Shown here: piece by piece, positions 1-52,089 of the stretch
Layout of the letters: the number at the start of each line of letters is the position of its first letter
How positions within the stretch are numbered: position 1 is the stretch's first letter
DNA from: Alloascoidea hylecoeti
Taxonomy: Eukaryota
Length of the DNA: 64,000 nucleotides
Direction of reading: 5' to 3'
NCBI GenBank assembly: GCA_001600815.1
Contig: BCKZ01000002.1
Location: forward strand, 1,124,294-1,188,293
Position numbers and translations under genes: made by a program
Notes under the pieces: model-generated
What the model saw: only the letters and a program-made list of their open reading frames with translations
Told to the model about the DNA's origin: nothing
The model's database searches: none

Positions 1-1187
1 CATCCCCAAAGATCAGACGGCCAAGAAGTATTAGTGCATAAGGTGGTGTGGTTGAGACTTTCTTCTTTCATTAATATTCTATTCTTTTATATAAGGAGAT
101 ACATACCATAGCGGGTTGTACAGATCGTCTAATTGTCACAATTTGTCAGAGATGTTCTGGCTAGACTATTATTTCTACTAAAGACAGGTTTCCGGGAGCA
201 AGCTTATTAAATGATAAAAAATATTTCAAATTCCTTCTTTGAAAAGTTACAATTATCAAGGGTCTTGCAATTCGATTCGGAAGAGTTATGATATTTAGAA
301 ATATAATGTAGAACATTAGATACGGAATTATAAATTCGGGATTTTTCATTAATACCGTTAACGTTATTGTATTTTAGGCGGTACCTTCAAGGTAATGGCA
401 TCCCCATTATGAAAATTTGCAATTATCAGAACAATAATTATAAATTTTAAATGAAACCAATTTAAATATGAATATTAATGCACGTTAAAATTTCGACTTA
501 TTATAATAAGGGGCCGGGGCTATTTTAAATTTTGCTGGAGACTTTGACACAAAATGAAACCGAAACGCCGAGACTGAATGAAAAATGTTTACTATTGTTT
601 AGAGAAAGACGATAAACCTACAGATGAGAATAAATATTTAAATACCAGCGCACTCCACTATCAAATTAGTACCAGTTTTGTTGTGTAAATGGAGCCATGG
701 AGTTACTAATTAGTTTTGCAATTGTTGTGTAAATGTAAGTGGGGGTTATGCTATGGAGTTATTAATTAATATCAGAGCAAAGGAATTCGTGAGTATGGCT
801 GATTATGAGCAAATTAATTGCAATCTCAAAATATATATATATATGATTTCGAAATTCCAACAACGGTTGCACCAAAGCACACAAAAGCACACGAAGCTGG
901 CACGAAGCGTGTCCGTCTGTTCTGGAATATATTTACAAGGCAAACATGCACCACTGCATACATTCCGTCAGCACCCGTGATGCGCTCGGTTGCGGGTGTC
1001 TGCGGCGGGTGTCTGCGGCGGGCCCCTGCCGCCACACGCGGGCGGCATTTGACCAGAACACGTGCGGGCGATTATTCAGCGGGTGGTCCAGCAAATAATT
1101 AAATATTGGCAGCCTGGCAGACGGAATATATATTTGGGTGCTCCTGCTGTTTCCTGCCTCTCTTGTATCCTCCAAATTTCAAAATCA

Positions 1188-7540: not shown

Positions 7541-8652
7541 CTATGCTTTGTAATCATGCAGTCTTTCTCTATAATTATGAATTCTTTGATCTCCGGAAAT
7601 ACCATTCCATATTTCCTCACCGTCCCTATACTCTAGCTTTGGTGTCCCTATTTGTTCGATTGCCAATCCAGCAGCAACATTTCCATATATTGCTGCAGTT
7701 TCTAAATCTCCATTAGAAAGTACTAGACCTGCGGAAAACCCACCAATAAAAGAATTTCCACCACCAGTTGGATCAATAACTTTACTAGAATCCGAGTGAT
7801 AAGCTGGAAACCATTTTTTATAGCCTGTAGAATTCATTATAACACAACCTTGCTTACCAGCCCTAATACATATTGAAGCAGTAAAGTCACCCTTAGTTTT
7901 GGTTAAATATGGGAGGAATTTCTCGCCCACTTTCTCGATCTCAGGTTTTGTATCTGGCTCAGTTAACCCAAAGAAACTAGCAGCCTCTTCCGCATTTGGG
8001 GATAAAATGTCGACGTAGTCCAATGATGACAGACACATCTCAAGGTTCTCTGGTATACACTCATTGGGGACAGGTTCCCAGACAATGAAAGGTTCTGGTT
8101 CATCGGGTATATTTTTCTTTCTTGCAGTTGATAAACGGCTGAGGATTTTATAGAAACGGTTTGGGGAGCAGATAAGATGATACGATTGAGAGGATAAAAG
8201 AGACGAGTTTGCTATCCAATCATCAACTTCAATTCTTTTCTTTGGTGCTAAATATTTGAAATCTATTATTTTGTTAGAATGAAAAGAAGCATCTGAAATA
8301 TAACTAATGAAAACTTACCACGATGTTCTCGTTCTGCATACATATTCCAACCTCTAGTTGTTTTTCTCTCAGGAGTATCTCTTAAGATAACACCCGTATT
8401 CCACTTCTCAATATCCATTAGGGCACTTTGTGGGAAATCACTCCCTATATCAATAATCCATTCTAGCTTTTTACTTTGTATTGGAGCTTTACAGAAAACT
8501 CTAGCACCAAGGATCGCCCAGGTTCCACCGCCTCCAATAACGTCTAATTGAGGTTGAAGCTTCATATATTCTGGAAAATAGATATCATCAATGATGAACA
8601 TTCCCATCGTTGTAAAGATAGTATTGTTGGATGTTGGATTTGTTAGTGTCAT
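7541..8652 (-). CDS. MAK32: PfkB/ribokinase-family protein Mak32; exons 8652-8319 and 8262-7541 (351 aa)
   Basis: GMFIIDDI, GGGGTWAILGA and DPTGGGNSFIGG motifs. Intron 8318-8263 (GTAAGT...TTCTAAC...TAG, 56 nt) restores DFKYLAPKKRIEVDDW. Confidence 0.88.
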
Positions 8653-19850: not shown

Positions 19851-20320
19851 TTAATAGCAAGTATAGTTATAGGTGCTATTTTCACGTTCTTAGCTATTGG
19901 ATACACAACAACAACTGCTGCTACAAAAACCGCTGCTAATGATCATAAAAAAAACTAATGATGATGATGGGGATTTTCTTTAAATTTCAAATAGAGCTAG
20001 AAATTAATACATAAACGAAACTAATTTCACTCACTTATCAAATTTGTTCCATTTTATGTTTATCTGTTATAATAAACTTCAATTAATTACAATTGTTTGA
20101 TTAATATTATGTTGAACATTTTTGATTTTACAACAATAAATATAGATCTAGATATTAGACAATTACTACAATTTTTATTCTTTTTATTTTGTTTTTTTGT
20201 GCGTTTAGGATGACTAATCACAATTTTCTTATAATTAATTATATTAGACTATGTACCTATATAGAAAAAAGTAAGCTTAAATGATTTTGAAAAGAAATAT
20301 TAATATGAATATGATATTAA

Positions 20321-22192
20321 TTATACCAGAATAATTTCTTTCTCGGATCTTGAATTTATACTATCTTCAAGATCTAACTTTAAATTCGATTTTCTCTTGA
20401 TCATTGAATTAAATTTAGAAAAATATTGCGGTATGAAAGTACAAATAATTCCTAATGGAAATCCAATACAAATTAACAAAATTGAGTTTATGGTAGTTGA
20501 TGATGATTCAATAGATCTAATAATAATCCCTTCAATTTGATCGTGATTAACATTTGATTTATTCTGAGAATAGAACAATAAGAAAATGCTGCCAAGAGAT
20601 TTTAATTTAAACCCGGTTATTAATATTATTGTGGTAATAAATATAGAAAGTAATGTTTTAGATTTTTTCAAATTTCTAACTGATAGAGCATTAGCACTTT
20701 TACTCAAAACAGTGATTATTGCCATCACTAATCCAAAAATAGGTATAATTAGATATAATCGAGATAATATATGTTGAAAGTTCTTAAATAATTGAATTGG
20801 ATTTCCTATCCAATCAACCCATTCTGTAAAAAGTTCTAGCCTTTCTTGAAATTGTAGTAGCTTATTTTCATTTATATGAATGATTTCAGTAAAATTATCC
20901 ATTCTTATCATTACCCAATCTAAATGATCTAAATGTGTTTTCTGTCTCTGTTCCAGTATAGTACCCATTTTATTTACCCATATCGAAAAGTTCTCTGCTT
21001 GAGTTTCCATGTTTTCTTGTATCTTATCCTGTCTATCAACTATTGTAGCAGTAATTTTGTGCAATTCTTGATGAATGTTTAGAATATTCTTCGTCGTATC
21101 CTGAATTGTTCCTAATAATTCCGTTATGTTTTCAGATGTAGTTAATGTATCCATTATAGATAAAGACATCTAGATATTAAAAGTTATATAGTTAGAAACT
21201 AAAATGTAGCTATAGTAAAACATGATATAACTTACCTGTCTGATAACGATCCCAAGATAATTAGATAAATTTTCAGCTGACTTTATTTGTTGTTTTTCAA
21301 CAATTTCTAATTCGGTTTTAAAACCATCAAATTCGGTTCTAAAACTATCAAATTCATTACTGAAACTTTTTTTTTGATTATCACTAATATTTCTTATAGC
21401 ATGATTCAATTCATTTTGAAAATTGATTGTTGCATTATTAATAATAATAGAGATCTTCTTGCCTAATGATACATCAACTTCATCAATAAAGTCCTTAAAT
21501 AAATGCATTTTAGAAAAGATATTAGTTATCATTGGATTAACCTTAGATAAAATACTATGACTTTGTTTATTGAGCTTTGTGATGTTAGAGAAGAGATTTA
21601 TTAATTGATCTATTAAAGTATCATATCGTTAGTAAATTTAAAGACAATAAAGGATAATCATATAGATATACTTACCTTTTTCATATGGTAATGATTCTTG
21701 CTTGCAAAAATGACTTATGGATTGAAAATTCCCACTATACGTGGTCCATAATTGAGGAATTTGCTGAAACTCATCAACACACTGATAAATGTTTTTCTCA
21801 TTATTCCAATCATGATTACTAACCAAAAAATTGCACGTAGCAGGGTATGGTACTTGGCTTAGTTCAAATTCACAGACGGAAAGTTTGATTGTGACAATGA
21901 TTTTCATGAGTGGGTCAAGTCCTTCAATCCCTTCATGTGCACAATTTGGCAAGATTGTATCAAGAGATGAGCGAAGACATGAAAACGATGGTTTTAATGT
22001 GCCATAAGTATCAATAGCATTGTCAAATAGAGTGCTTAAATCATCGGGTATGGAATTGTGGTGTGGGTTAGAATATTGTTCAAGCTTAAGATTGTCATTA
22101 TTAACTCCAACTTGTCTTCGCTCTTTAAACAGAAATGCAAATGATAAAGCAACAAATGTCAATTGCAGGATAATTTTCATCACATATACCAT
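20321..22192 (-). CDS. KAR5: Nuclear fusion protein Kar5/Tht1; exons 22192-21676, 21609-21236, 21169-20321 (579 aa)
   Basis: Signal peptide; Cys-rich domain (KLSVCEFE...YPATC...CVDEF...WTTYSGNF...C); coiled coil; C-terminal TM segments. Two 66-nt GTAAGT...TAG introns (21675-21610 with TACTAAC, and 21235-21170) join three ORFs in frame. Confidence 0.88.
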
Positions 22193-22493
22193 CTCTAGTG
22201 TATAGTATTCTTATGATGTATCATAAAATAAAATGGAATCTATCACATATTTATAGTGAAAGACCAGAAATATTTAAGTTTGGTATCTTTTCCTATTTTG
22301 TAAAAAACCCGTCTATATTGCAATTAGATGCATACACGAGTAGATTTAAAGCTATATAAATTATAAATATTCCGGGGATTTTATTATAATCAGCTATAGT
22401 TATAATTAAATAGGTTTAAGTGTATATATACTATAATTATAAGCTTAAAGACATACACAAAAAAACATTGAGCAACTATATCGACCATGATTA

Positions 22494-24014
22494 TTAGAAT
22501 CTGGCCCAGAGGGCGATAATAGGAATAGTAAATACCAGAAAAGCAACAAATGTAACCAACCCTTCCGAATGAGTAACCTCCTTTGCCGTATTTGAGTTAG
22601 CTGTATGTGTCGATTTAACACTCTCATTCTTTTTAGTGAATGGTCTCAAGTTTGTAAATTTCTTTTCGGAATCTTTTTCATTTGCCTTATCAATCTGATT
22701 AACCTTATTCATATTCTTAAGAGCTTTAGTATTTATATTCTGTCCCGTCTCACATTTAATCAATTCTCCTTGAATTAAACCACGAGATTTAGTATTTAAC
22801 CAAGAAGAGCAATCGAAATTAGCTGAAGTGGATCTAAGATTTGTGCTACCCTTAATAAGTTCTAATTCGTTAAATTGAATGTAATCAAAGTCCCCTTCTA
22901 AATTAACTGCTCCGTTTATAGTTTGTAAGTTATTAAAACCATCAATACTCTTAATATTATCATTATCAACAATAATTAAAGCACCACCAATATTTTCAAG
23001 CTTGGGGAAATATGTGTTGGATAAATATTCGTTTCCATTGATGGTTAAAGTACTACCAATTAACTTTAATTCTGGGGCAGAAAGATTTGTCAAGGAATTA
23101 TGAAAAAGTTCCAAAGATCTTGTTACTATTTGTAAAGAGTCAAGGTTTAATTCAGAGACACTTTTAATGATAATATTATCTACTTGAATAAGCTTTGGAA
23201 GTGAGAGTTTCATAGACCAAGAATTATCAGTAACATCAATAGAACCTTTAACTATCTTTAATGGTAAATCAGCACTGGTCATATATCTATTATTTCTCAG
23301 ATAAAAAGAATCGATTCGTTCCATAGTAAACATTCCAGAAACACTTTGCAAAGAAGTATCAACGATCCTCACTTCTTTTGCCCCGGATATTCCACCACCT
23401 AATATAAGTTTATCCAATAACGGAAGAATCAAAAGCTCAAATGATTCAACTGTACTTAATTTCGGCATATCAATCTTTACCAAATCAGTTGCTTTTTCAA
23501 TTCTCACAGTACCTGCAACTGTTTCCAAATTTGGAGCTTTGAAAATATAAGTATTTCTAATATTGCTCACAATTAAATCACCTTCAACATGTCTTAAATC
23601 GTTTAGATTGATTTCTCTCCCCTTGAACTCGGGAGAAATAACTAAATTTCCTTGAAAATTACCACAAGCAGAAACTCGATTCAGATCCCCTTCATGCATT
23701 GCAACAAATAAACCACTACTCTGGCAAAATTCATCGACAACTCCAGCGCTGGCGGAAACGACATTTTCAGCTTTATTAGAGCCAAATACCAATCCATTAA
23801 GTTGATTGAAGTCAGTAATTTTGACTGGGAATTGCCCTTGAAAATCATAATCTAGAACGTCTTCTCAAATAACAAAATTAGAATATATATAAGCAATTAA
23901 TATGCATATGGCTATGCTTGTGTTGTACCAACCTTTATCAAATTCCAGACTTTTTGCAATCGAAACTCCGGCCAAACATAAAGTGAGAATGACTTTGTTT
24001 AAGTTTTTCTTCAT
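22494..24014 (-). CDS. SPS2: Sps2/Ecm33-family GPI spore-wall protein; exons 24014-23933 and about 23851-22494 (about 479 aa)
   Basis: Receptor-L-domain-like repeats (FPKLENIGGALII, NFDC) and a hydrophobic C-terminus. An upstream exon supplies the signal peptide MKKNLNKVILTLCLAGVSIA via an intron beginning GTTGGT. Adjacent to SPS1, as in S. cerevisiae. Confidence 0.8.
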
Positions 24015-24330
24015 TATTCTATTCTGGAAATAATCTGATTCGGTTAATTGGTTGTGACATAAGATATTTATTTCTTCTTTTTTTACTCGGCGCTTATATT
24101 TATGTCCAACTTAGAAGCATACCTTAAGAGAAATTAAAATGATGGAGATTATAAAACCGATATCAGTAAAAACAAGAAATAGAAGAATTCTTTTTTTGTA
24201 ATTGTGATGGCGAAGAACAGAGTGTAAAAAGGTAAAGAAAAAAGAAAAAAAGAGTTGAATTGTTTTTATATAAGGTATACATTACCTGCTGCAAGGATGA
24301 ATTTTTATATCTATATTGATACATGCCTGT

Positions 24331-26152
24331 TTAGTTATAATTTATTGATATTTTGTACATTAGGTTCCAAATTTCTTCTAGAAAAACTTCTGAAAATCCC
24401 GGAATTTCTTCTTCATAGCTTTCAATGTCGTTTGCTAAAACTTCTATTTTTTGTCTTGTCGCTGCGCTATAACTTCTCTTAGAAATATTTCTCAGGCTTC
24501 TTTGTAAAACCGCAGCCATATCATATTCCTTAAACTTATGATTTTTTTGGTAACTAGAATTTCGTGTAGATAGCGTAATGAATGATTTCGACATTTTACA
24601 ATCTTTTACCATATTTGCATCTGGATCCGGAGAGGCGCTTGATATTAGTGTTTCCGGCGAACCTTCCGGTTGGCTGTTAATCGGAGAAAATTGTGACGAA
24701 ACAAATGATTCAGCTGATGTCAATGGTGTTTTATTCTCAATATAAGGAGAGATTCTTGATTTTGTTGGTGATTGCCTCATTAACATCATGGATATTTTTG
24801 ATTTTAAATCTAGCCGCGGTTTAAGCGATTTTGGAGTGCTAGTTGGCTTGTTAGCATTAATCACAGGAGCAGCTATGGAGGAAATGTGTTCTATATTGTG
24901 AGTACGAGTACGCTTTCTGCCTTCTTCTAACTTATTGCAATCATAATTTGGTGTAGTACATGGTGTGGCTGGTACTATGGTTGGGAAGTCCCAAGATACA
25001 CCTTCACCTTGATGGATATCCAGTAAATATTTTAGATGTCTTGGTTTTCTAACCTGATCTTTAAATCTCGAACATTCATCTCTCTCCTTTATTATAGGAA
25101 CAAGATCAATGTGCTTCTTTACTGATTTTATAAATTTTGTTCGTAAAAGCTGGGAAGCTGAAAATCTTTTAATGGGGTCTTTTGTCAAACAACAGCTCAC
25201 AAAATCTTTACACGCTTGACTAAATTCATCACCAGATAATGTAGGAGCTGGTCTAGCAGGGACTAAAACAACGGCTCTCATTGGATCTTCCCTTGAATGT
25301 GGCGGTTTTCCTGTTAACAATTCAATTGTAGTGATGCCCAAAGACCATAAATCGGCCTTTTCATCGTATCCATTTGTTCTAGTAACGATCTCTGGTGCCA
25401 TCCAAAAGGGGGTCCCAACAAAAGTTTGCATTTTTGGGACTGTTTCTGTGATTTCTCCACTAACTCCAAAATCCCCAAGTTTCACCTTCCCATCCGCTGT
25501 TAGTAAAATATTTGCTGCTTTAATATCACGATGGATTTTGTTTTCAGAATGAAGATATTGCAACCCCAAAAGTGCTTCTCTTATGATATAAGCAACATGA
25601 TTTTCTTGTAATTTTCCATGATATTTCAGCTTTTTAGAATTCTTAGTAAATCATTATATATACGGTTTTTTGAGTATAATTTTGAAGGTCTTACCAAATC
25701 AGCACAAGAACCACCACCACAATATTCCATGATGACCCATAATGATGAGTTTCTCACGTATGTTTTAATATATCTAACAGTTGGAATAGTTAATTTGGCT
25801 ATCCACTTTATTTATGATTCTCATTTCATAGAACGAAATATATTAAATAAATTTACCGCTGTTTTTATCATACCTTGTTATATATTGGGATTTTAACCGT
25901 CTCAGAAAATTGATTTCCTGGATCAAGACATCAACATCTTCATCTGTTTCTTCCAACGATATAGTTTTTATAGCAACTATCTTATCATTATTGAGATCCT
26001 GTCTATAGATCATACATATTCATATGAAAATTTGTTAATGTTTAGCAATTTTTTTCTTTTTGTGTTTCTTCTTACGCTTTGTAGACATCACCAAAATTGC
26101 CGCTTCCAATACACTTTTCGATTTTGTATAGTTTAGTTGGATCTTCAGTCAT
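24331..26152 (-). CDS. SPS1: Ste20/GCK-III-family kinase Sps1; exons 26152-26076, 26002-25874, 25773-25695, 25629-24331 (527 aa)
   Basis: Three introns rebuild IGSGNFGDVYKA...VAIK...EINFL...WVIMEYCGGGSCADLLK, continuing into HRDIKAANIL, DFG and GTPFWMAPE. Lies between SPS2 and AGE1. Confidence 0.85.
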
Positions 26153-26725
26153 TGTTTATTTAGGGTTCACCAGTTATTTTTTTTTTGTTTATTGTATTAG
26201 CAAATTGATTCAATTGTGATCCTCAATTTTGGTTTAGTATACTAGGAAGCGATACTTGTAAGTAAGGTTAAAAGAAAAGAAATAATTTAAAAAGGATGCA
26301 TAATAGTTCGACAATTATATATTTAAATTGATGTCATATTTCAAGCTACAAAAAGTTTATACGATCTGTCAGTAATATTCATTATATGTGACACATTATT
26401 CCTCGCATTATAGTCCGTTTTCTCCTTTATCTTTATTTTCTCTTTTTTTAATCCAAACAATAAAGTGATTATGATATTTCCAAAAAGCATATACCCGTTA
26501 AATAGATAAACATTACATAAAAAGACATAAAGACAAAACAATAGCAATAACGAAAAGCGGTTAATCTCAATAATATGATTAATTAAATGAATAAACCAAA
26601 ACAAACAGAAGTAGAAAAGAAAATTAGTATAAATTAGTAATGTAAACAATAATATAATTAACACAAAAACATAAACTATAATTTTATATAGTTATAAGAC
26701 AGTTAGGATGTATAATATGAAATGA

Positions 26726-29700
26726 TTATGAAGGAAGCGTCTTCAATTTTGCATCTTTGGGTATTAAAGAGCTATATCTCTGATGGGAATTAGCAGAACC
26801 ATCTACAACTTTAGGATCCAAAGATGACCGTCTACTATGATGAATGGCGGTATTTGCTCCTGGTGTTGATAATGGTGGTGGTAAAGGAGGTGATATTTGT
26901 GGTTCTGGAGGGGCCAATGTTGGCTTGTTTTGAGATATTGATAATAATCTGGTAGGGGTTTCAATTGACCCTATACTCTTCCTTTCAGTCGAAGATGATT
27001 GACTTGGTACAGTTAAATTAGGTCTAGTACTAGGACTATGAGTTGTTAATGTTGTTGTTCCACTTGTGCTCGGTAATCTAGCTCTTTTAATTTCTCTTGA
27101 AAAATTTTCATTTCCTGTATTCCCATTTAATCTATTAATTTTCAATGTCCAAAAAGCTTTTGCAGCTTCTGGTAAATTATTAACTTCAGGAATTTTATCA
27201 GGAACATTTGCACCATTTAATATTAAAAATTCAACAATTGGAAAAATATATAAATTTTTTTTATTCTCTAATAATTCACATCTTTTGGATTCTTCAATTA
27301 ATGCATATTCAATCAATGATAAAATATTTCTTTTTGAATTTATAACTTGTTGGGTAACCTTTGCACCACATGCAAGAGATGCTAAAATATTATAAACATC
27401 AAAAGCTTTAATTGATTTAATAAGTGTAATATCAGCATCATTAACCGATTTAGCAAACATTTTAAATTCATATTTTTTAGAAATATAAGTGAAACGTTCT
27501 TCTGGTGTACAATTTGGTTCTAATTTTGGTGTTCCTAATTTTGCTTCAAATACATCATTTAATTTTTTATTTGAAACATGATTAAGCAACTCAACAACAT
27601 CAACAGTAAATGATTTGACATCTAAAAGCAATGATCTGATTTTAGTGATATGTGTTCCTAAGGATCTATGAGCACCACTGCATTCGATACAAATAACTGC
27701 TAGTAGATTTAAGGAAATCCATTCCACTTTTTTGGTTGACCCGCAATCAGCACAACGGGAATTACTGGGATCTGCATTTCTCACTGACTGTAAAAAAGGT
27801 GATGTACTGTTGGAAGATGTAATAAGTGAAGTTGTTGGGGAAATAATAGGAGATTGAATAGTTGGAGAAATAGGTGTTGGAATATAAGCACTATGAGAAT
27901 GGTTATGAGAAGCATGCCCTAAAGAGTAAGAATGCCCAGGACCATTGGTTTGAATTTTCATTTGTCTTTTTTTACCAGAAGTTCCATAATCTGATTTCAA
28001 TGAATTTGATTTAGTTTTTGAACTTGAAACAACTCTTTTAATACCTGTGGCTCTTGCAAACGATGCAGCATGACTTTCAGTTTTGTTGAATATTGCTTGA
28101 ATACTATGACTACCATTATCACTATGAGAATTTTTATTGACAGTTAAAGGCGAATCTTTTATTTTTGAATCTTCTAAACTTGTAGAGATAGCATTTGTAA
28201 TTGAGTTTATCCAACCATTCATATCAGCTTCTGAAACAGCTTGAAAAACTCTTTTAAAACTTGGTGTAACAACTTCAAAACAAAATCTTCTATCTGAATT
28301 TCTTGCTTCACGAACTAACGCCATTTTTAATTCAATTGGTTCATTATGTAAATCAACTGTACCTTGTTTCCAATTACTATATTCACATAATTTCCCATCT
28401 GCAACAACAACCCAATATTTATGCCAATTGATTTTATTCAAACTTAATGGATCATTTATACCACCTGGTTTTGACAAGGCCCATAATAGACCTTCTTTTA
28501 GTGTTGACTGTCCAATTGTTTTTTCGTCGTCCTGTGATGTATTATCGTTATTTACATTAGAAGTAATATTAGTGTTATTGCTATTATTATTGTTGCTATT
28601 ATTATTACTGGTATTGTTATTGCTAATATTAATATTGCTATTGGTATTAGTAATGTTATTATTATTAGTATCACTATTGGTATTACAATCATCTTCATTT
28701 GATTTTAAGAATTCTGTTCCAATTATTGTTATTCTTCTACTGTCTTTCTTATCCTTCGAAGTTGTTAGTGATGATGTGTTTTCAATGTTGCTTTCTCTTC
28801 TTCCATTATGGTCTGCTGTATCATCCTTACCCGAGTTATTATTATTCGTAATAGTTATAGTAGTAGTAGTAGTAGTAGTATTAGCATTTGTATTGGTATT
28901 ATTATTTGAATTAGTGTAAGTGCTAACAGCGCTACTATTATTATTGTTGTCCGATCCAATAACAGCAATAATTTCACCCATTGTAGTAGATCTTTCTAAA
29001 GCACGTCTTTTAATTTCTCTATCACTTCTAATTTTAATCCAATTTTTATTATGATCAGAAATATCATTAAAAATTGAAATTAATCTAGTTGAATTTAATT
29101 TTAATTGATCATTTAATGTTGAAAATCTTTTTAAACGAGTTTCAGCATATTTTGAACAATTAAATATAACATTATCAATTTTTCTACCATCTGTTATATC
29201 ATACATGAATAATAAATAATCCATTCTTCTTAATTCGAAATTTCTTCTCTTTTCGACATTTTTTGTATCATTTGATTTTTTTCTGATTTGTCCTCCCATA
29301 TTATTAGCATTATTTATGCTTCCTCCAATTCCATTAGTATTTGGATTAGCATTTGATGAGATATTTGAAGTAGTAGCGTTACTAGTAGTAGTAGTATTGT
29401 TATTGGAACTATTATTAATATTATAAACTGTGTTACTATTATTGTTATTATTGCCAGAGTGATGATGTAAATCATTGTCTTGATAACCCGAAGTTTCATT
29501 TTTAGTTGACAGATATCTACTAACCCAATTATAATATTCTCTTGATTCATCTTCAAAATCTCTTTTATGTTGATCAAAAGATTTTATATCGGAATAATAT
29601 AATCTTTTAAATGGCTCAACAATAAATTCAGACAAAGATCTTGTATCCATTTCAGTTAATTTCATTAATTCTGCTTCATAAGAGTTAAAAAATTCTTTGA

Positions 29701-30880
29701 TTAATTCGTGTAATAAAGGTATTCCATCAGGATTTGATAATTCATTCAACGAATTAACTAAATCACGTTGTAATTTTGATGTTTCTAATTCGTGTTCATA
29801 TAAGGTAGTTGATTTTTTTAATACTTTTTTAACTAATGGTTTAATTGTATTTAATTTTTTCTCTAATGAAGAAATTGTTGCTCTAAAAACAGGGCCATCT
29901 TCAAGATTATCAAGGGATGAAGAAACCATTTTTTTTGTTGATGATAAAGGAGTTTTAATTGAGGACGATGGATCTTTAGGTGTTGTTTGATGTGATAATG
30001 GTACCGGTAAAGTTTTATTTAATGAAATTGGAGTTGGGAATTGAGCCCTTGAATCGTTTATCCAGAATGAAAACCTAACAAGGGTTTGTAATCTATGCTC
30101 TCGTTTATCATATTCAGCGAACTTGAATTAGGACAGTTAGTTTATATTCGGATGTAAATATATATATGTATATATATAAAAAGAAGAACTTACGCAACAA
30201 GTATTTCTCCATCCACATTTAATTTTCCTATTTAAATTTTCTTCCAATTTCCAAGTCCAACACCATTCAAATTCAACAGAACCGTCTTTGAAGACAATAT
30301 TTGAAATTTTACCATTACTATTATTATTATGATTTGAAGAAGAGGAGTTTGTAGTTGAATTTGAATTTGAAATCTTTAATTCTTGTCGTTCAGGAGTTCG
30401 AATGTATTTAACGTCACCTAATAGTTCAACACTTGTTTCATTTTGTATGTTTGGATTATGAAGTAGTTCGTTTGATATGAAATCTTCCAGATCTTGCGAA
30501 GTATCTTTATTAACAAAAGTTAAGCCTTCAATTAGATGTGGATTTGAGCTATCTAGCTGTATGGCAATTTTGAATTTAAACTGTAAAACATTGCGCGACA
30601 GTGGGATTTTTAGTAGAATTTCGTTCCCATCATTATTATCATTATTATTCATGGTGTTTTTATCATCATTTTGAGACTTTTGTTTTTGTTGTTGCGAATT
30701 TTTATTATTATTGGTAAGAGGAGGCTGAATATATTCGACCAAACCGTCGTGAGGATCAATGCCCTGGCTGTTTATGGTGTAAATAACATTGTTATCCTGC
30801 GACACCTCCACCTGGGCTATTTGAAATAGGGAATTTCTGTGAAACCAAGTTTTACTGAGAGAGCTGTGATTATTTCCCAT
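26726..30880 (-). CDS. AGE1: BAR-PH-ArfGAP protein (Age1/Csx2, centaurin-beta-like); exons 30880-30194 and 30121-26726 (1360 aa)
   Basis: MGNxxS myristoylation-type start; EDGPVFRATI BAR start; PH domain (WHKYWVV...RRFCFEVVTP); CADC-x16-CIEC zinc finger. Intron 30193-30122 (GTAAGT...AACTAAC...AAG) gives WRNTCCFAEYDKREHRL. Confidence 0.88.
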
Positions 30881-33510: not shown

Positions 33511-35409
33511 ATGGACCCACTTTTACCCCAGAATACTCCACAAGAAAAACAAAGTTGGTTTCAGCGTTACTCTGCTGATGGTACATCTATTCCAAGCCTT
33601 GACCCAAACCAACTAACTTTCCACCTAAATTTGGACGATTTGGACGACATGTTCCCCGAGATTCGTAATTATGAAAAGCCCTCCGAACGCTCTAGTGCCC
33701 TTCCTGTGTCACCTCTTTTGCCTATCCAAACCCCACAATCCTTAATCATTGATCTTGGTACTAATACCAGAAGTACACTAGGAGAGGATATCGATACAAA
33801 CTCACAGATCTCTTGCAATTGGTCTTCCTCCATCAATTCTATGACCATTCCTCATGATCAGTTGTCATCTACATATATTTCACACTCAAACTCTTCAGCC
33901 TCTGCCTATGACTACGAATCTCCGCATAGTCCATTTTCTCCCACCATTCAATATGGTTCTAATGCTCCCTTAACTGACTCTAAGAATGCTCAACTCAATA
34001 GTGATTTAAAATCCAATTCCCCTCTTTTCAATTGGTCCTGTTTTCTTCCTTCACCCCAATCTCTGAATGAAAGTCAAAATCTCGGGGTTCATAATTTTCC
34101 ATCTGTCCGAAATCCAAACATCAATAATAATGCACAGCAACAGAATCAAAGTCTTAACTTAAAAAATCAAAATCAAAATCAAAATCAAAATCAAAATTTA
34201 CCACATATGCAATTTGACTCAATTGAAATCCCGAGTAGAAATAATGATAATATTATAATTAAAACTGAAACTGAAAATGAAAATGAAAATGAATTGATTG
34301 ATGAAAATATTCAAGTTGATCCAATGACTTTAATTCAAGAACAATTAACAGCCCTTGCAAAAGAAGAAGCTTGTTCTAGTTCTTCTGTACCTAAACGAAA
34401 AAGGAAATCCTCCAAACAAGACTCTTCTTCAAAATTTAACTCTGGTGATAATCAACCAAATATTAATAATAATCGCATTAATTCTATTAATATTAAGAAT
34501 AAGTGGTCTGTTGAAGAGACTAATAACTTGATTATTGGATGCAAAATTGTAAGTAATTAACTCCTAAATTTTTTTTTAACCCTCATATATAAAAATTTGC
34601 ATGATGTTCATTCAATTGATTATGAAAAAAACGTGTAAAGATTCATATGCAATATTATTTGTTTTTTGAATTTACTAACTTTATTACCTTTTAATTACTT
34701 TTAGTGGGGAGTTGGTAATTGGAAAAAAATATTAAATGATTCAACATTATCATTTAATAATAGAACCGCTACCGATTTAAAAGATCGATTTAGATATTCA
34801 TTTCCTAATGAATATCATAAATTATATCCAAATGCAAGAACTCATAAAAGAAAAAGAGCATCATCTTGTTGTGTAATTGATACTAATGGTACTGGTTCCG
34901 ATGTGACTATTGATAGTAGTGATTCCAGATCATCCTCAATTTCAGCAGGTTCATATTCGAACTCATTTTTTTACTCACCTGTTTCAAGTTGCTCTCCTTT
35001 AACAGACACTCCATCTCCAGATCCATTGTTTATGATCACACCATCACAACAACAGCAACAACATCATCATCATCAACAACAGCGTCAAGCCATTTGTCAA
35101 ACTATTCATTTAGGTATCATACCACCAACTCAATTGTCAAGAGTTGTTCGCAGAACAAGACATGCTTTCACCCCTGAAGAAGATAAGCATATACTTCTTG
35201 GATTTAAAAAGTATGGAACATCGTGGAATAGTATTCAATCAGATGCTTCTTTAAAATTAGGTCATAGAAATAGAACTGATATAAGAGATCGATTTAGAAA
35301 TAAATATACCGAATTGTATGATTTATTAATTAGAAATCGAAAGAAGAAAGGAAGATCAACATCTATTATAAAACCTCAAGTTCAAAATTCAAAGATTTCA
35401 AAACAATAA
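33511..35409 (+). CDS. Double Myb/telobox DNA-binding protein, Tay1/Teb1(Mug152)-like; exons 33511-34548 and 34705-35409 (580 aa)
   Basis: Intron 34549-34704 (GTAAGT...TACTAAC...TAG) completes Myb1 KWSVEETNNLIIGCKIWGVGNWKKIL...RTATDLKDRFR. Myb2 is RHAFTPEEDKHILLGFKKYGTSW...RNRTDIRDRFRNKY. Confidence 0.8.
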
Positions 35410-36535
35410 TAAAAAGATGTTCAAGATTGAAGGTTACTCATTTTATTTGATTAATTGACTTCTTATATATACTTGTTGGACCTAACCTATAAGGTTCTCA
35501 AATAATTTGGTCGATAATTTGGTATGAATGGAACCACATAACACTCATCTGCAGATTATTTATTTATTGAAAGACTTGAAATATACCAATTGTAAGTTTT
35601 TTACTTACAATTGTGTATCTATTTATTATACAAATATTATATTTATGTTTTGTCTTATCCATATCATGAAAATTATTTATTTATTATTATTTATTATTAT
35701 TTATAATCATTTATATATATATTTATTTATTATCCATTTATTATATTTATTTATTATTTATTTATCATTTATATATTTATTATCCATTTATCATTATGTT
35801 ATGATTATGATTTTCTTTTACTATTATTTTTTATTTAAATTTAAATTATCAAATGAAAATAAGATTTTCTAGATTTATCATCTCAAGTTTGAAATTGTAA
35901 TTGTGAAGTCATGGAATTCTTTTCTGGATCCGAAATGAGGTTTGAATTTATAGACACCATATATTAATATCGGTTATAGTAGTTACTAATGTTACAAACA
36001 AAAATCAATCACGTGAGATATGTTTATGTAATTTCGCTCCGAGCAACATCACGTGTCAGACTGAAATCAAAAAAGAAACGATGTAGTCGCAATGCAATTA
36101 CGCCAAGGAATAAATACGCGGCTTGAAAACGTGCGCGGTATGCGTGTGCTAAATATAGATAAAAGAATTTTTCTACGATCTCGACTATAATTAGCAGCAT
36201 AGATAAGAAAAATATATCTCGACCGAGCAATTACAGTTTACAATTATGAAAATTTTTTAGAATAGCAAAAGGAAAAGGTTGGTGAGAGTTTTTTAGCAAA
36301 CACGTCCCCTATGATAATTAATTAAATTAAGGTAACCCAAGTTTCTTTCTAGCATACCAATTTTTATGAAAACAAATCAAAATGAAAATGATAGAAAAAA
36401 CAAATTAATAAATTAAACCAAGGAAATTATAGCAAATCAATGTAGAAAAATATAGAATATAATATAACAAGAAATAACATAACCGTCAATAAACTTTGCA
36501 GTCATATTCCAGTGTATATGAATAAATTTCTAGTC

Positions 36536-36783
36536 TTATAAGAGAAGGGCAACGACACCAGCGACGGCGGCTCCGGCAACACCAGCACTGACCAAGTTGT
36601 TGGAAGCACCTGAAGAGGATCCACCAGTTGTGCCATTTGTGCTATTTGAACTAGAAAAAATATCTTCATTAGTACCGCAAAACCAAAACCAAATCAAAAG
36701 AGGTTAAGTTAAAGGACATACGAGTTGGCAGCAGAGACGGCGGTAGCAGCGGCTAAAGCGATAATAACGTTCTTGAATTGCAT
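36536..36783 (-). CDS. 58-aa secreted/GPI microprotein, YDR524C-B/YCL048W-A-like; exons 36783-36722 and 36650-36536
   Basis: Spliced product MQFKNVIIALAAATAVSAANSSNSTNGTTGGSSSGASNNLVSAGVAGAAVAGVVALLL. Intron 36721-36651 is GTATGT...TACTAAT...TAG. TATAAATA on the minus strand near 36874-36881. Confidence 0.85.
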
Positions 36784-37042
36784 TTTTGAATATTAAGAGA
36801 AGGAGTTATAAACGACTGTGAACAACAAATGTGTATAATAGAAGAGAAGAAGAGAAATCGGGATGAGTTGCAGTATTTATATCCCAAACAAGGGACACGC
36901 CTTCCCGATCCGGAAACGACCGTAGTGCATGGCGGTGCGCGGCCTTGCATGCGAGCGAGGTCCAGAATCTTCCATTGCTCCCTCAGCTACTACGTTACAA
37001 CCACACTACTGCACTACTCCACCACTCTACTACCTACTCCCG

Positions 37043-37340
37043 ATGCACGCCCAAGATTGGTTCCTCGCCATCGTCGCTATTTTACTGCCTCCTGTTGCCG
37101 TTGCAATCAAGCGTGGTATCTGTTCTGCTGACTGTATGTATTTCCCTCTCGCCATTGGATTGCTATTAGTATTATACCAAACGCTAATCTTACTCAGTTC
37201 TCATCAACGTTGCCCTGTCCATCCTAGGGTTCATTCCAGGTCTGATCCATGCCTTCTGGATAATTGCCAGTTATCCATACGATGAACAAAAGAAGACACA
37301 CTATGTTGCCCCTCAACAGAGCTATGGGTCCATCAATTAG
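37043..37340 (+). CDS. SNA2: Pmp3/Sna-family proteolipid (77 aa); exons 37043-37133 and 37198-37340
   Basis: MHAQDWFLAIVAILLPPVAVAIKRG...FLINVALSILGFIPGLIHAFWIIASYPY...YGSI. Intron 37134-37197 is GTATGT...GCTAAT...CAG. Confidence 0.85.
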
Positions 37341-44398: not shown

Positions 44399-45971
44399 CT
44401 AATTCTGTTTTAACCATTTTGAACCAAGTTCCAAAGGTTTTAATAAACCACTTTGTTTTGGAACATAATCAATTCTATGAGTACTATTTAAATTCTTTCT
44501 CATAACGATTTGAAAACAAGTTGCTCCACCTTGTCTTGAAGTAATTGTAGAAGTTGCTAAGAAATATTCCCAAATATTATACCATCTTGAACCATATTTT
44601 TCAACAACTTTTTCTTTGTTACCAACCCAATTTCTATACCATCTCCATAAAGTAGCTGAATAGTGAACACCAATTGTATCAACACTAGTAATTTCAAAAC
44701 CAGCACCTTCTAATTTATCAATAACCCAACCTAAAGGAGTTGAAGCATCAGCACCTGGAAAGATATATTTATTCATGAATAAACCCCAAATTAAATCCTC
44801 ATATTGCCAACATTTTCTTAACCCAGCATATTGTAAATAAAAAACACCATCATCATCCAGCATATTATAAACTTGATTTAAAAATGTACTAAAATGTCTA
44901 ACACCAACATGTTCAGCCATTTCAAGACAAGTAATCTTATTATATTTACCATCGTTTGTTGATGGTAAAGGAGTATCTCTATAATCTAAACATAAAATTT
45001 TTGATTGACTTTCTTCAATTCCAGATCTTGCTAAAACATCATTACCCCATTTAGTTTGATTTTTACCAAGAGTTATACCAGTTACATTTGCACCATAAAC
45101 AGTTGAAGCATAATTTGCTAAAGTTCCCCAACCACAACCTAATTCTAACAATAAATCATTTTTTTGTAAATCAATTTTTTCACAAACAATTCTTAATTTA
45201 TTATCTTGAATTTCTTCCAATGTTTCTTCTTTATTAATATCAGAAACAATACCTGAAGTATAAATCATTCTTGGACCTAAAAACCAAGAGTAAAAATCAT
45301 CACCACGATCATAATGATCTCTAACTTGTTCTTCATCTTGGGATCTTGAATGCATTATAACTTCAGGAATCATACCCAATAAGAAATATTTAAATAAACT
45401 ATAAGTAAAATTAAAAGTAGCCCAATCATGTTTCAATTCAAGAACATCTAAAGCATCACCTTTAAATTCAATTTCACCATTGAAGAATAATTCTTGAAAA
45501 GTTTCCAATGGAATTTTTGAATTTTTATACTTGGCTTCCAATTGCTTATTATTAAATTTAAGATAATAATCAATTGGACGATTTGGTAATTTAACTTTTT
45601 CATTTAATCGTGGAGTATACGTTGATAATACCGTCCAGTAGGCTACTAATATTGGTAAAGCCAATAAAATGGTGAAAAATAACCAGGTATAAAAACCAAG
45701 ACCAAATATTCTTCTAGTAATAAGGTATGGAATTCCAGCAATCAAAGAAAACAATAATAGATTTGAAAAATGTCTTGAACTTGGACCATCGGCCGGAAGA
45801 GGGGCATTATGAATTGCCGGAGACTATCAATTGAGTTAATATATATATATATTTATTATAATATTGGTGACGGTTGGGACTTACATCAGTTGTTCTAACA
45901 CCACTTTTGGTGCTCGAAGGCTCCGGGGGAGACGTTGGAGGAGTTGAGATAAACTTAATTTGATCTGACAT
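44399..45971 (-). CDS. MTS1: Sphingolipid C9-methyltransferase (CFA-synthase-like); exons 45971-45885 and 45823-44399 (503 aa)
   Basis: HNAPLPADG, QVRDHYDRGDDFY, ELGCGWG SAM motif, CLEMAEHVG and KYIFPGADAS. Intron 45884-45824 is GTAAGT...TAG. Confidence 0.9.
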
Positions 45972-51601: not shown

Positions 51602-52089
51602 ATGGGTCGGCTGTATACAACATATCTGGAATCTAATGACGAAGAGACAACTATTTTTGGCTGCAAAAAATGTTTGACACATTTATCACTAAGCACCTCT
51701 ATAACACCAGACGTAAGTGGAAATTACTATAGACAACTTTTTGTCTACAGAATATTAATACAATAAACTAATCTGCTTTCGGATATTAGACATTTCGTGG
51801 TCGATATGGTGCAGCTTTTCTGGTCAGTAAAGTGTAAGTTTACTTCCCCTTTTATATATAGAATTATTCATGGGCCTTAGTAACCTTTCTTTAATTTAGT
51901 ATTAATGTCGAAGAAGGCAAACTAGAGGCTAAAAGTATGGTTACTGGACATTATAAAATAAGGGATATTAAATGTCCGCAATGTGAAACTATAGTTGGTT
52001 GGAAATTTATTGAAGCTATGACTGAAGAAGAAAAGTACAAAGAAGGAAAGTATGTTCTTGAATCAACATTAATAGGTCCTGTCAAATGA
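51602..52089 (+). CDS. Yippee/Moh1-family zinc-binding protein (114 aa); exons 51602-51712, 51790-51833, 51900-52089
   Basis: Spliced product MGRLYTTYL...FGCKKCLTHL...FRGRYGAAFL...VINV...MVTGHYKIRDIKCPQCETIVGWKF...KYKEGKYVLE. Two GTAAGT...TAG introns. Absent from the ORF track. Confidence 0.9.

Follow-up and report, generated by a model that had tools for sequence, protein, structure and literature searches.

The four introns of two adjacent genes of Alloascoidea hylecoeti, an SPS1-like kinase gene and an SPS2/ECM33-family gene, carry splice signals that are collectively sub-optimal by the standard of the 64-kb stretch in which they lie (the window, 64,000 nucleotides in all). The explanation that we tentatively prefer, at slightly less than an even chance, is that they are real but sub-optimal, are tolerated because the two genes see little use, and are served by no dedicated switch. 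The window belongs to an AT-rich, intron-rich budding yeast, and of its roughly 25 genes 11 contain introns. Anp1 shows 64-83% identity across many budding-yeast orders, which does not resolve the placement of the yeast among them. De novo intron scans proved too noisy and intron models were made gene by gene instead; a Pfam scan of 125 gap ORFs added no further genes to the window, and an Rfam scan of it returned tRNA-Gln only, so the window is without an snRNA gene.

The SPS1-like gene (24331..26152, minus strand, ATG at 26152) has four exons encoding a STE20/GCK-type kinase of 527 aa when spliced, and three short introns must be removed for a continuous frame. Exon 2 corresponds to Pfam Pkinase positions 22-60 and exon 4 to positions 90-263, and the named homology matches include "SPS1" and "sporulation-specific protein 1". 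In a MAFFT alignment of the spliced protein with 15 homologues, no gap falls at any of the three junctions, as judged from the 11 homologues that reach the N-terminus (the remaining four are N-terminally cut ORF calls). With an N-terminal STE20-type kinase domain, a length of about 500 aa, SPS1 proteins as its best named relatives and an SPS2-family neighbour, the gene has the marks of an SPS1 orthologue. That neighbour (22494..24014, minus strand), located 320 bp downstream, encodes a receptor L domain protein whose length varies with the acceptor (480-484 aa), with a match to Pfam Recep_L_domain and to Atlas clusters named Ecm33 or Receptor L-domain from Ascomycota. Its exon 1 (24014..23933) codes for a signal-peptide-like start that joins in frame after splicing, and the protein ends in a hydrophobic (GPI-type) tail; receptor L domain, signal peptide and hydrophobic C-terminal tail together place it in the SPS2/ECM33 family. 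A word-based homology search gave just four weak relatives, and the assignment to SPS2, as opposed to an ECM33 or PST1 paralogue, would follow from synteny only: the gene lies beside SPS1 and an AGE1-like gene, as in the gene order of S. cerevisiae.

All four introns are on the minus strand. SPS1 intron 1 (26003..26075, 73 nt, phase 2) begins agc/GTAAGA, has the branch candidate CATTAAC 32 nt before its 3' end and ends in TAG; intron 2 (25774..25873, 100 nt, phase 2) begins aag/GTATGA, with AATTAAC as branch candidate and TAG as acceptor; intron 3 (25630..25694, 65 nt, phase 0) begins ttg/GTAAGA, with the candidate TACTAAG, and ends in AAG. The SPS2 intron (23852..23932) begins aag/GTTGGT at 23932, contains the branch candidates TATTAAT and TTCTAAT, and offers three in-frame acceptors (GAG at 23864, AAG at 23861 and TAG at 23852). 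The position of this TAG is also the left coordinate given in the sequence-only reading. Each of the four introns has the boundaries and branch-like motif of a GT-AG spliceosomal intron and restores the frame on removal. Retention of SPS1 intron 1, 2 or 3 leads to a stop after 26, 78 or 117 aa, respectively, and unspliced SPS2 RNA reaches a stop after 49 codons. Because the spliced SPS1 protein aligns gaplessly at its junctions and retention gives early stops, the introns are required, and we take all four to be true U2-type introns whose removal is obligatory in these orthologues of SPS1 and SPS2.

Eleven introns in nine genes serve as controls, 10 of them complete and one truncated where the window ends. 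A pfkB-family kinase gene has an intron at 8263..8318 (minus strand; GTAAGT, TTCTAAC, TAG), and KAR5 (Tht1) has two on the minus strand, intron 1 at 21610..21675 (aag/GTAAGTAT, TACTAAC, TAG) and intron 2 at 21170..21235 (cag/GTAAGT, TTCTAAC, TAG), which match U1 at 10/11 and 9/11 positions. The others are in an AGE1-like BAR-PH-ArfGAP gene (30122..30193, minus; GTAAGT, AACTAAC, AAG), a Myb-domain gene (34549..34704, plus; GTAAGT, TACTAAC, TAG), a small secreted/GPI-like gene of 58 aa (36651..36721, minus; GTATGT, TACTAAT, TAG), a Pmp3-family gene (37134..37197, plus; GTATGT, CGCTAAT, CAG) whose exons 1 and 2 correspond to positions 1-25 and 27-48 of the Pfam profile, a CMAS-type methyltransferase gene (45824..45884, minus; GTAAGT, TATTAAC, TAG) and a Yippee/MOH1-like gene with two introns on the plus strand (51713..51789, GTAAGT, AACTAAT, TAG; 51834..51899, GTAAGT, TAGTAAC, TAG). 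The intron at the window edge (1..106, minus) begins atg/GTATGT right after the start codon and has the candidate branch CACTAAT, its acceptor lying outside the window.

The claim of the sequence-only reading that non-consensus donors are confined to SPS1 and SPS2 holds for this set: all four SPS donors deviate, against none of the 11 controls (8 GTAAGT and 3 GTATGT, a tally identical to that of the earlier reading). In Fisher tests the contrast has p=0.0007 when introns are counted and p=0.018 when genes are (2/2 vs 0/9), both of them post hoc and with the two SPS genes adjacent to each other. A +6A donor is found in 3/3 SPS1 introns and in 0/11 controls; the SPS1 donors are thereby without the +6 U, and the SPS2 donor has U/G at +3/+4. 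Sampling chance would produce this contrast if variant donors (GTAAGA, GTATGA) were common, say 15-25% of introns, and happened to fall in two neighbouring genes. The sample is of 15 introns only, the pattern was chosen after the fact and neighbours are not independent; additionally, the variable branch sites of the controls suggest a tolerant spliceosome, which usually goes with a looser donor consensus. However, 0/11 deviant controls set a 95% upper bound of about 0.24, under which three of three in one gene would have a probability of about 0.014 or less, and a separate compositional difference (described below) marks the same four introns, so that we consider chance an unlikely explanation.

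The weakness of the SPS donors is modest. Complementarity to U1 over positions -3 to +8 is 6, 6, 6 and 7 of 11 in the SPS introns and overlaps the range of 6-10 in the controls, two of which are at 6, and a compensating G occupies position -1 in three of the four weak donors, two of them reading AAG at the exon end, as expected from selection for adequate constitutive U1 pairing. The sequence-only reading had also described the SPS branch sites as poor, which is correct insofar as CTAAC occurs in 0/4, but this is not distinctive, CTAAC being present in only 5/10 complete controls; the control branches are of the types CTAAC, CTAAT, TTAAC and GTAAC, with TATTAAC (CMAS-type gene) and TAGTAAC (MOH1-like intron 2) among the variants. 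The AAG acceptor reported for SPS1 intron 3 is likewise present, but the AGE1-like control intron (30122) ends in AAG as well. A +6A donor is combined with a non-canonical branch in all three SPS1 introns, "non-canonical" being judged against a CTAAC core that half of the complete controls have.

A difference beyond the donors lies in the first part of the introns. From +7 to +30 all four SPS introns are A-rich and U-poor in comparison with the U-rich controls (Mann-Whitney test, p=0.005 for A, p=0.010 for T), and A-runs occur within this segment in all three SPS1 introns (at +15 and +21 in intron 1, +8 in intron 2 and +24 in intron 3). The SPS1 introns resemble the exons of their gene in composition (A 0.41-0.52, T 0.26-0.33), with A>T as in the surrounding exons, whereas 8/10 control introns show T>A; the intergenic DNA on either side has no such richness in A. 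This exon-like composition next to intergenic DNA that lacks the bias fits introns that are unoptimised and not specially built. Such introns could be young, that is, gained recently in the lineage and not yet optimised, hence their exon-like A-rich composition and imperfect signals. Several homologues, P0012 and P0026 for example, are continuous ORFs across the SPS1 intron positions and SPS1 of S. cerevisiae is not known to contain introns, both of which would suit a recent gain. Nevertheless, the homology of two ORF-called relatives, P0016 and P0019, disappears exactly upstream of the position of intron 1, which weakly suggests, from protein comparison only, an intron at or near this site in another lineage; intron 1 may then be old, and we regard recent gain as very unlikely. 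A metagenome scan with SPS1 exon 4 found 45 loci, all through the generic word PFWMAPEI and at most 50% identical, none of them with SPS2 or AGE1 relatives, and there were therefore no orthologous introns for comparison.

Regulated, meiosis-enhanced splicing is possible but doubtful. U1/commitment-complex formation on the weak SPS donors, with their weak branch sites and U-poor flanks, would be inefficient in vegetative cells, any transcripts would stay unspliced and be degraded, and a factor or a changed spliceosome load would free splicing in sporulation. The gene-specific deviation (4/4 vs 0/11), the weak leaning of all three signals, the separate A-rich, U-poor signature after the donors and the early stop upon retention of every SPS intron are consistent with it, and S. 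cerevisiae offers analogous precedents in the Mer1/Nam8 regulon, SUS1 and ribosomal protein gene (RPG) repression. On the other hand, the Mer1 enhancer AYACCCUY, whose absence from the SPS introns had been noted from the sequence, has no match on the sense strand of any of the four at 0 or 1 mismatch. The search for a shared intronic motif that had been proposed alongside came to nothing, as no k-mer recurs in at least three of the four except AT-rich words; on inspection the introns also lack a TACC motif, and the U-poor flanks offer no TIA-1/Nam8-type U-rich site. Also against a switch are the overlap of U1 pairing with the controls, the -1 G compensation in 3/4 donors, the small effect of GUAUGA in short S. 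cerevisiae introns, and the near-perfect donors of KAR5, itself presumably a rarely used sexual-cycle gene; furthermore, sporulation-specific expression of SPS1 and SPS2 in A. hylecoeti is presumed from their orthology only. Ndt80-type MSE sites (GNCRCAAAW) gave 5 matches vs 8 expected, with none in the SPS promoters, and the MSE core CRCAAAW, present a single time in the upstream region of SPS1 and missing from that of SPS2, is at the density of the background.

Weak meiotic introns are already known as a kind. The hosts in A. hylecoeti are spore-morphogenesis genes, not known to have introns in S. cerevisiae, and differ in this from the Mer1/Nam8 regulon, which also carries the AYACCCUY enhancer that the SPS introns lack; the SPS donors deviate at +6 or +3/+4, whereas those of the regulon are of the GUAUAU, GUAGUA and GUUCGU types. 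In PMC3082912, the regulon (AMA1, MER2, MER3 and SPO22) is made up, like the SPS1/SPS2 pair, of meiosis or sporulation genes with non-consensus 5' splice sites, which dictate Mer1/Nam8 dependence in SPO22 and MER3; in the SPO22 intron given there, as in SPS1 intron 3, donor and branch both deviate and the acceptor is AAG, and TIA-1 is described there as binding U-rich flanks. SUS1 resembles SPS1 in having a +6A donor, a non-canonical branch and several introns: both SUS1 introns begin with GUAUGA in 4/11 of the species tabulated in PMC3201862, and in its intron 1 GUAUGA and a non-canonical branch reduce removal, the retained form going to NMD (PMC3201863). Unlike SPS1, SUS1 is a constitutive mRNA-export/SAGA gene under stress regulation and not a meiotic one, and conservation of its weak donor is documented. 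Fission yeast, a different lineage, shows meiotic intron retention in transcripts bound by the YTH protein Mmi1, a system that works by way of the motif UNAAAC; no cluster of UNAAAC-type motifs was seen by eye in the four SPS introns. A factor-free route is given by "hungry spliceosome" competition, in which weak introns are better spliced once ribosomal-protein pre-mRNAs fall, as in meiosis, and RPG repression does improve meiotic splicing in S. cerevisiae (PMC6726248). This route needs RPG introns to dominate the spliceosome load, which is uncertain in A. hylecoeti given the spread of introns among the genes of the window.

A broader proposal, which we hold to be decidedly unlikely, is that intron-rich budding yeasts have a lineage-wide, Mer1-independent meiotic splicing programme: a class of introns in spore-morphogenesis genes such as SPS1 and SPS2, with a deviant donor and then an A-rich, U-poor tract, would elude U1 recruitment in growth and be rescued in sporulation by a putative A-tract-binding or U1-associated factor. 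If the SPS signals do serve regulation, budding yeasts would have had splicing control linked to meiosis for longer, and more widely, than the four-gene Mer1 regulon of S. cerevisiae suggests. This control would target late genes of the spore wall and of spore morphogenesis through a different intron signature, and the locus would be a simple comparative system for the rise and loss of splicing regulons together with introns.

Under the preferred explanation of tolerated sub-optimal introns, the general spliceosome would remove the SPS introns, probably somewhat less efficiently than the neighbouring ones, and the RNAs left unspliced would meet early stop codons. Selection would tolerate this because the two genes, if used specifically in sporulation as their orthology suggests, are needed only briefly and at a modest level in spore formation; both the lower efficiency and its tolerance we infer. 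Should the SPS introns be spliced better in meiosis, this would be a side effect, for instance of reduced competition for splicing factors in the spliceosome. Library measurements in S. cerevisiae show a significant loss of efficiency with GUAUGA only where the intron exceeds 120 nt (PMC8496845, S2 Fig legend). The SPS1 donors deviate at that same position, +6, and the SPS introns have 65-100 nt, which supports tolerance. Low expression alone does not force such decay, because KAR5, presumably needed in the sexual cycle only, keeps donors matching U1 at 10 and 9 of 11 positions. One change common to 3/3 SPS1 donors and an A-rich, U-poor start in 4/4 introns are also more orderly than simple drift predicts. 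By analogy, the conservation of the weak GUAUGA of S. cerevisiae SUS1 and the decisive role of non-consensus 5' sites in Mer1/Nam8 control may likewise speak against tolerance. If the signals are not regulatory, the locus would show, as a small and clean case, what drift of splice signals is possible when genes are seldom used, in a yeast with otherwise strict GTAWGT donors.

DNA contigs from three runs confirm the sequence, those listed for X4 leaving the SPS1 intron-3 donor unspanned. Strain divergence is about 0.1% (7 substitutions and 3 indels in 10.2 kb for X3), and therefore too little for judging constraint; the X3 contigs, from a metagenome strain, show zero differences within any of the four SPS introns.

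The kinase gene SPS1 (STE20/GCK type, minus strand) starts at 26152 and has an intact frame only when three introns, at 26075..26003, 25873..25774 and 25694..25630 (all on the minus strand), are removed. The spliced product is 527 aa long, and its MAFFT alignment shows no gap at any of the three junctions in the 11 of 15 homologues that reach the N-terminus (the remaining four are N-terminally truncated ORF calls). The Pfam Pkinase profile places positions 22-60 on exon 2 and 90-263 on exon 4, and retention of intron 1, 2 or 3 leads to a stop after 26, 78 or 117 aa respectively. In the neighboring receptor-L-domain gene SPS2, an 82-nt exon 1 codes for a signal-peptide-like start and is followed by the donor GTTGGT at 23932 (retention gives a stop after 49 aa); alternative nearby GT sites were ruled out, as their use would either disrupt the frame or truncate the hydrophobic core. 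Three tandem acceptors, all in frame, are candidates here (GAG 23864, AAG 23861 and TAG 23852, minus strand), and the choice among them would shift the product by 1 and 4 residues directly after the signal peptide; the disfavoured GAG is the first AG past the branch. All four SPS introns are real, and their removal as spliceosomal GT-AG introns restores the frame. A second GTATGA inside SPS1 intron 1 (26010-26015, minus strand, 12 nt before its 3' end) is probably a chance occurrence.

The SPS donors were compared with every other intron of the window whose presence is implied by a broken frame or an absent start codon, each of them rebuilt: two each in KAR5 and a Yippee/MOH1-like gene, and one each in genes for a pfkB-family kinase, an AGE1-like protein, a Myb-domain protein, a 58-aa secreted/GPI-like protein, a Pmp3-family protein and a CMAS-type methyltransferase, plus one cut by the window edge in the left-edge gene (1-108, minus strand), where the ATG is directly followed by GTATGT, a layout typical of ribosomal-protein genes. 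No complete control model holds an internal stop, the Pfam Pmp3 and Yippee profiles run on across their introns, and a Pfam scan of 125 further gap ORFs added no genes. Of the control donors, 8 read GTAAGT and 3 GTATGT, the tally of the sequence-only reading, and the deviation of the SPS donors (GTAAGA, GTATGA and GTAAGA in SPS1) was confirmed: 4/4 SPS introns against 0/11 controls (post hoc Fisher p=0.0007), or 2/2 against 0/9 by gene (p=0.018, also post hoc, the two genes being adjacent). That variant donors are common in the genome and were sampled by chance would explain the set too, since 0/11 leaves a background rate of up to ~0.24; 3/3 deviant donors in one gene have a chance of at most ~0.014 even at that rate (hand arithmetic), so that the deviation is accepted as gene-specific and sampling chance appears improbable. 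The other signals first read as poor distinguish the SPS introns less well: the CTAAC branch core is missing from all four and present in only 5/10 complete controls (others have TATTAAC in one case and TAGTAAC in another), and the AAG acceptor of SPS1 intron 3 recurs in the AGE1-like control.

The donors are no assembly slips, since contigs of the metagenome run X3 are identical inside all four introns, one contig spanning 23115-28831; none of the X4 contigs listed lies over the SPS1 intron-3 donor, and strain divergence is too low to bear on constraint. The X3 contigs cover 20200-30400 at ~99.9% identity (7 substitutions, 3 indels), so that the wood-decay sample contains a strain of the same species; the single contig takes in 5.7 kb of the stretch.

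Scored as matches to an ideal donor from -3 to +8, with a template not derived from A. hylecoeti, the SPS donors reach 6, 6, 6 and 7 of 11 and the controls 6-10 (one-sided Mann-Whitney p 0.027), two controls also scoring 6. A G at -1 is found in 3/4 SPS donors and 4/11 controls, which looks like partial compensation. Among the introns of a large library tested in S. cerevisiae, a GUAUGA donor lowers efficiency significantly only in those above 120 nt (PMC8496845); the +6A introns of SPS1 are 65-100 nt long. In SUS1, on the other hand, GUAUGA occurs together with a non-canonical branch; this pairing is conserved across species (PMC3201862) and lowers intron removal (PMC3201863). The SPS introns may well be tolerated, sub-optimal and constitutively removed, which is our tentative preference.

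Over positions +7..+30 the SPS introns carry 11-17 A and 2-8 T, and the ten complete controls 3-9 A and 6-14 T (post hoc two-sided Mann-Whitney p 0.005 for A and 0.010 for T, similar at other interval sizes); a run of at least 5 A in the first 30 bases occurs in 3/3 SPS1 introns and 0/10 controls. Because SPS1 exons are A-rich and same-strand flanking intergenic DNA is not, the SPS introns look exon-like, without the U-rich start of their neighbors. This fits unoptimised or young introns, the lack of a U-rich TIA-1/Nam8-type aid to splicing (PMC3082912), or an A-tract signal. Recent intron gain is very unlikely. Hints from protein sequence alone suggest that some relatives (P0012, P0026) are without these introns; in two others (P0016, P0019) the site of intron 1 may be occupied by an intron.

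The proposal that these introns stay unspliced in vegetative cells and are spliced in meiosis is a reasonable analogy to S. cerevisiae, since Mer1/Nam8 dependence there turns on non-consensus 5' sites (PMC3082912) and meiotic splicing improves with reduced competition (PMC6726248). The non-consensus 5' sites are shared, whereas the Mer1 enhancer AYACCCUY, not seen at first reading either, has no match in any of the four introns when up to one mismatch is allowed. No k-mers beyond AT-rich words are common to at least three SPS introns, neither promoter shows enrichment of Ndt80-type MSE motifs (with no firm bearing on transcription), and the hits of a metagenome scan were all distant STE20 kinases that lack SPS2 or AGE1 neighbors. 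Regulated meiotic splicing would be a credible but unlikely explanation.

The locus is AT-rich (GC 0.23-0.40 in 2-kb bins) with typical budding-yeast gene content, its Anp1 sharing 64-83% identity with members of many budding-yeast orders. The minus-strand order is Tht1/KAR5, the receptor-L-domain gene, the STE20-type kinase gene and a BAR-PH-ArfGAP gene. The best named relatives of the kinase bear the annotation SPS1 or 'sporulation-specific protein 1' at a full-length identity of only 34-38%, and the L-domain gene is named SPS2, rather than another ECM33-family member, solely because SPS2-SPS1-AGE1 is also the order on S. cerevisiae chromosome IV. With identity at this level and naming by gene order, we infer sporulation-specific use of both genes in A. 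hylecoeti. The AGE1-position gene (26726-30880, minus strand) has a BAR-PH-ArfGAP product of 1361 aa, far larger than S. cerevisiae Age1, in which long low-complexity tracts are rich in Asn and Thr; in X4 contigs, 6 bases of its repeat region are deleted at 29383. KAR5 (20321-22192, minus strand), presumably a rarely used sexual-cycle gene, has two 66-nt introns with donors at 10 and 9/11 against the ideal U1 partner, the top of the window. For a budding yeast the window has many introns (15, spread over 11 of ~25 recognisable genes), all of them short (56-156 nt) with varying branch cores (CTAAC, CTAAT, TTAAC, GTAAC), and a GC-richer island (~0.40) at 36534-37340 contains a back-to-back pair of tiny genes, each with an intron: that for the 58-aa secreted/GPI-like protein and that for the Pmp3-family proteolipid of 77 aa.
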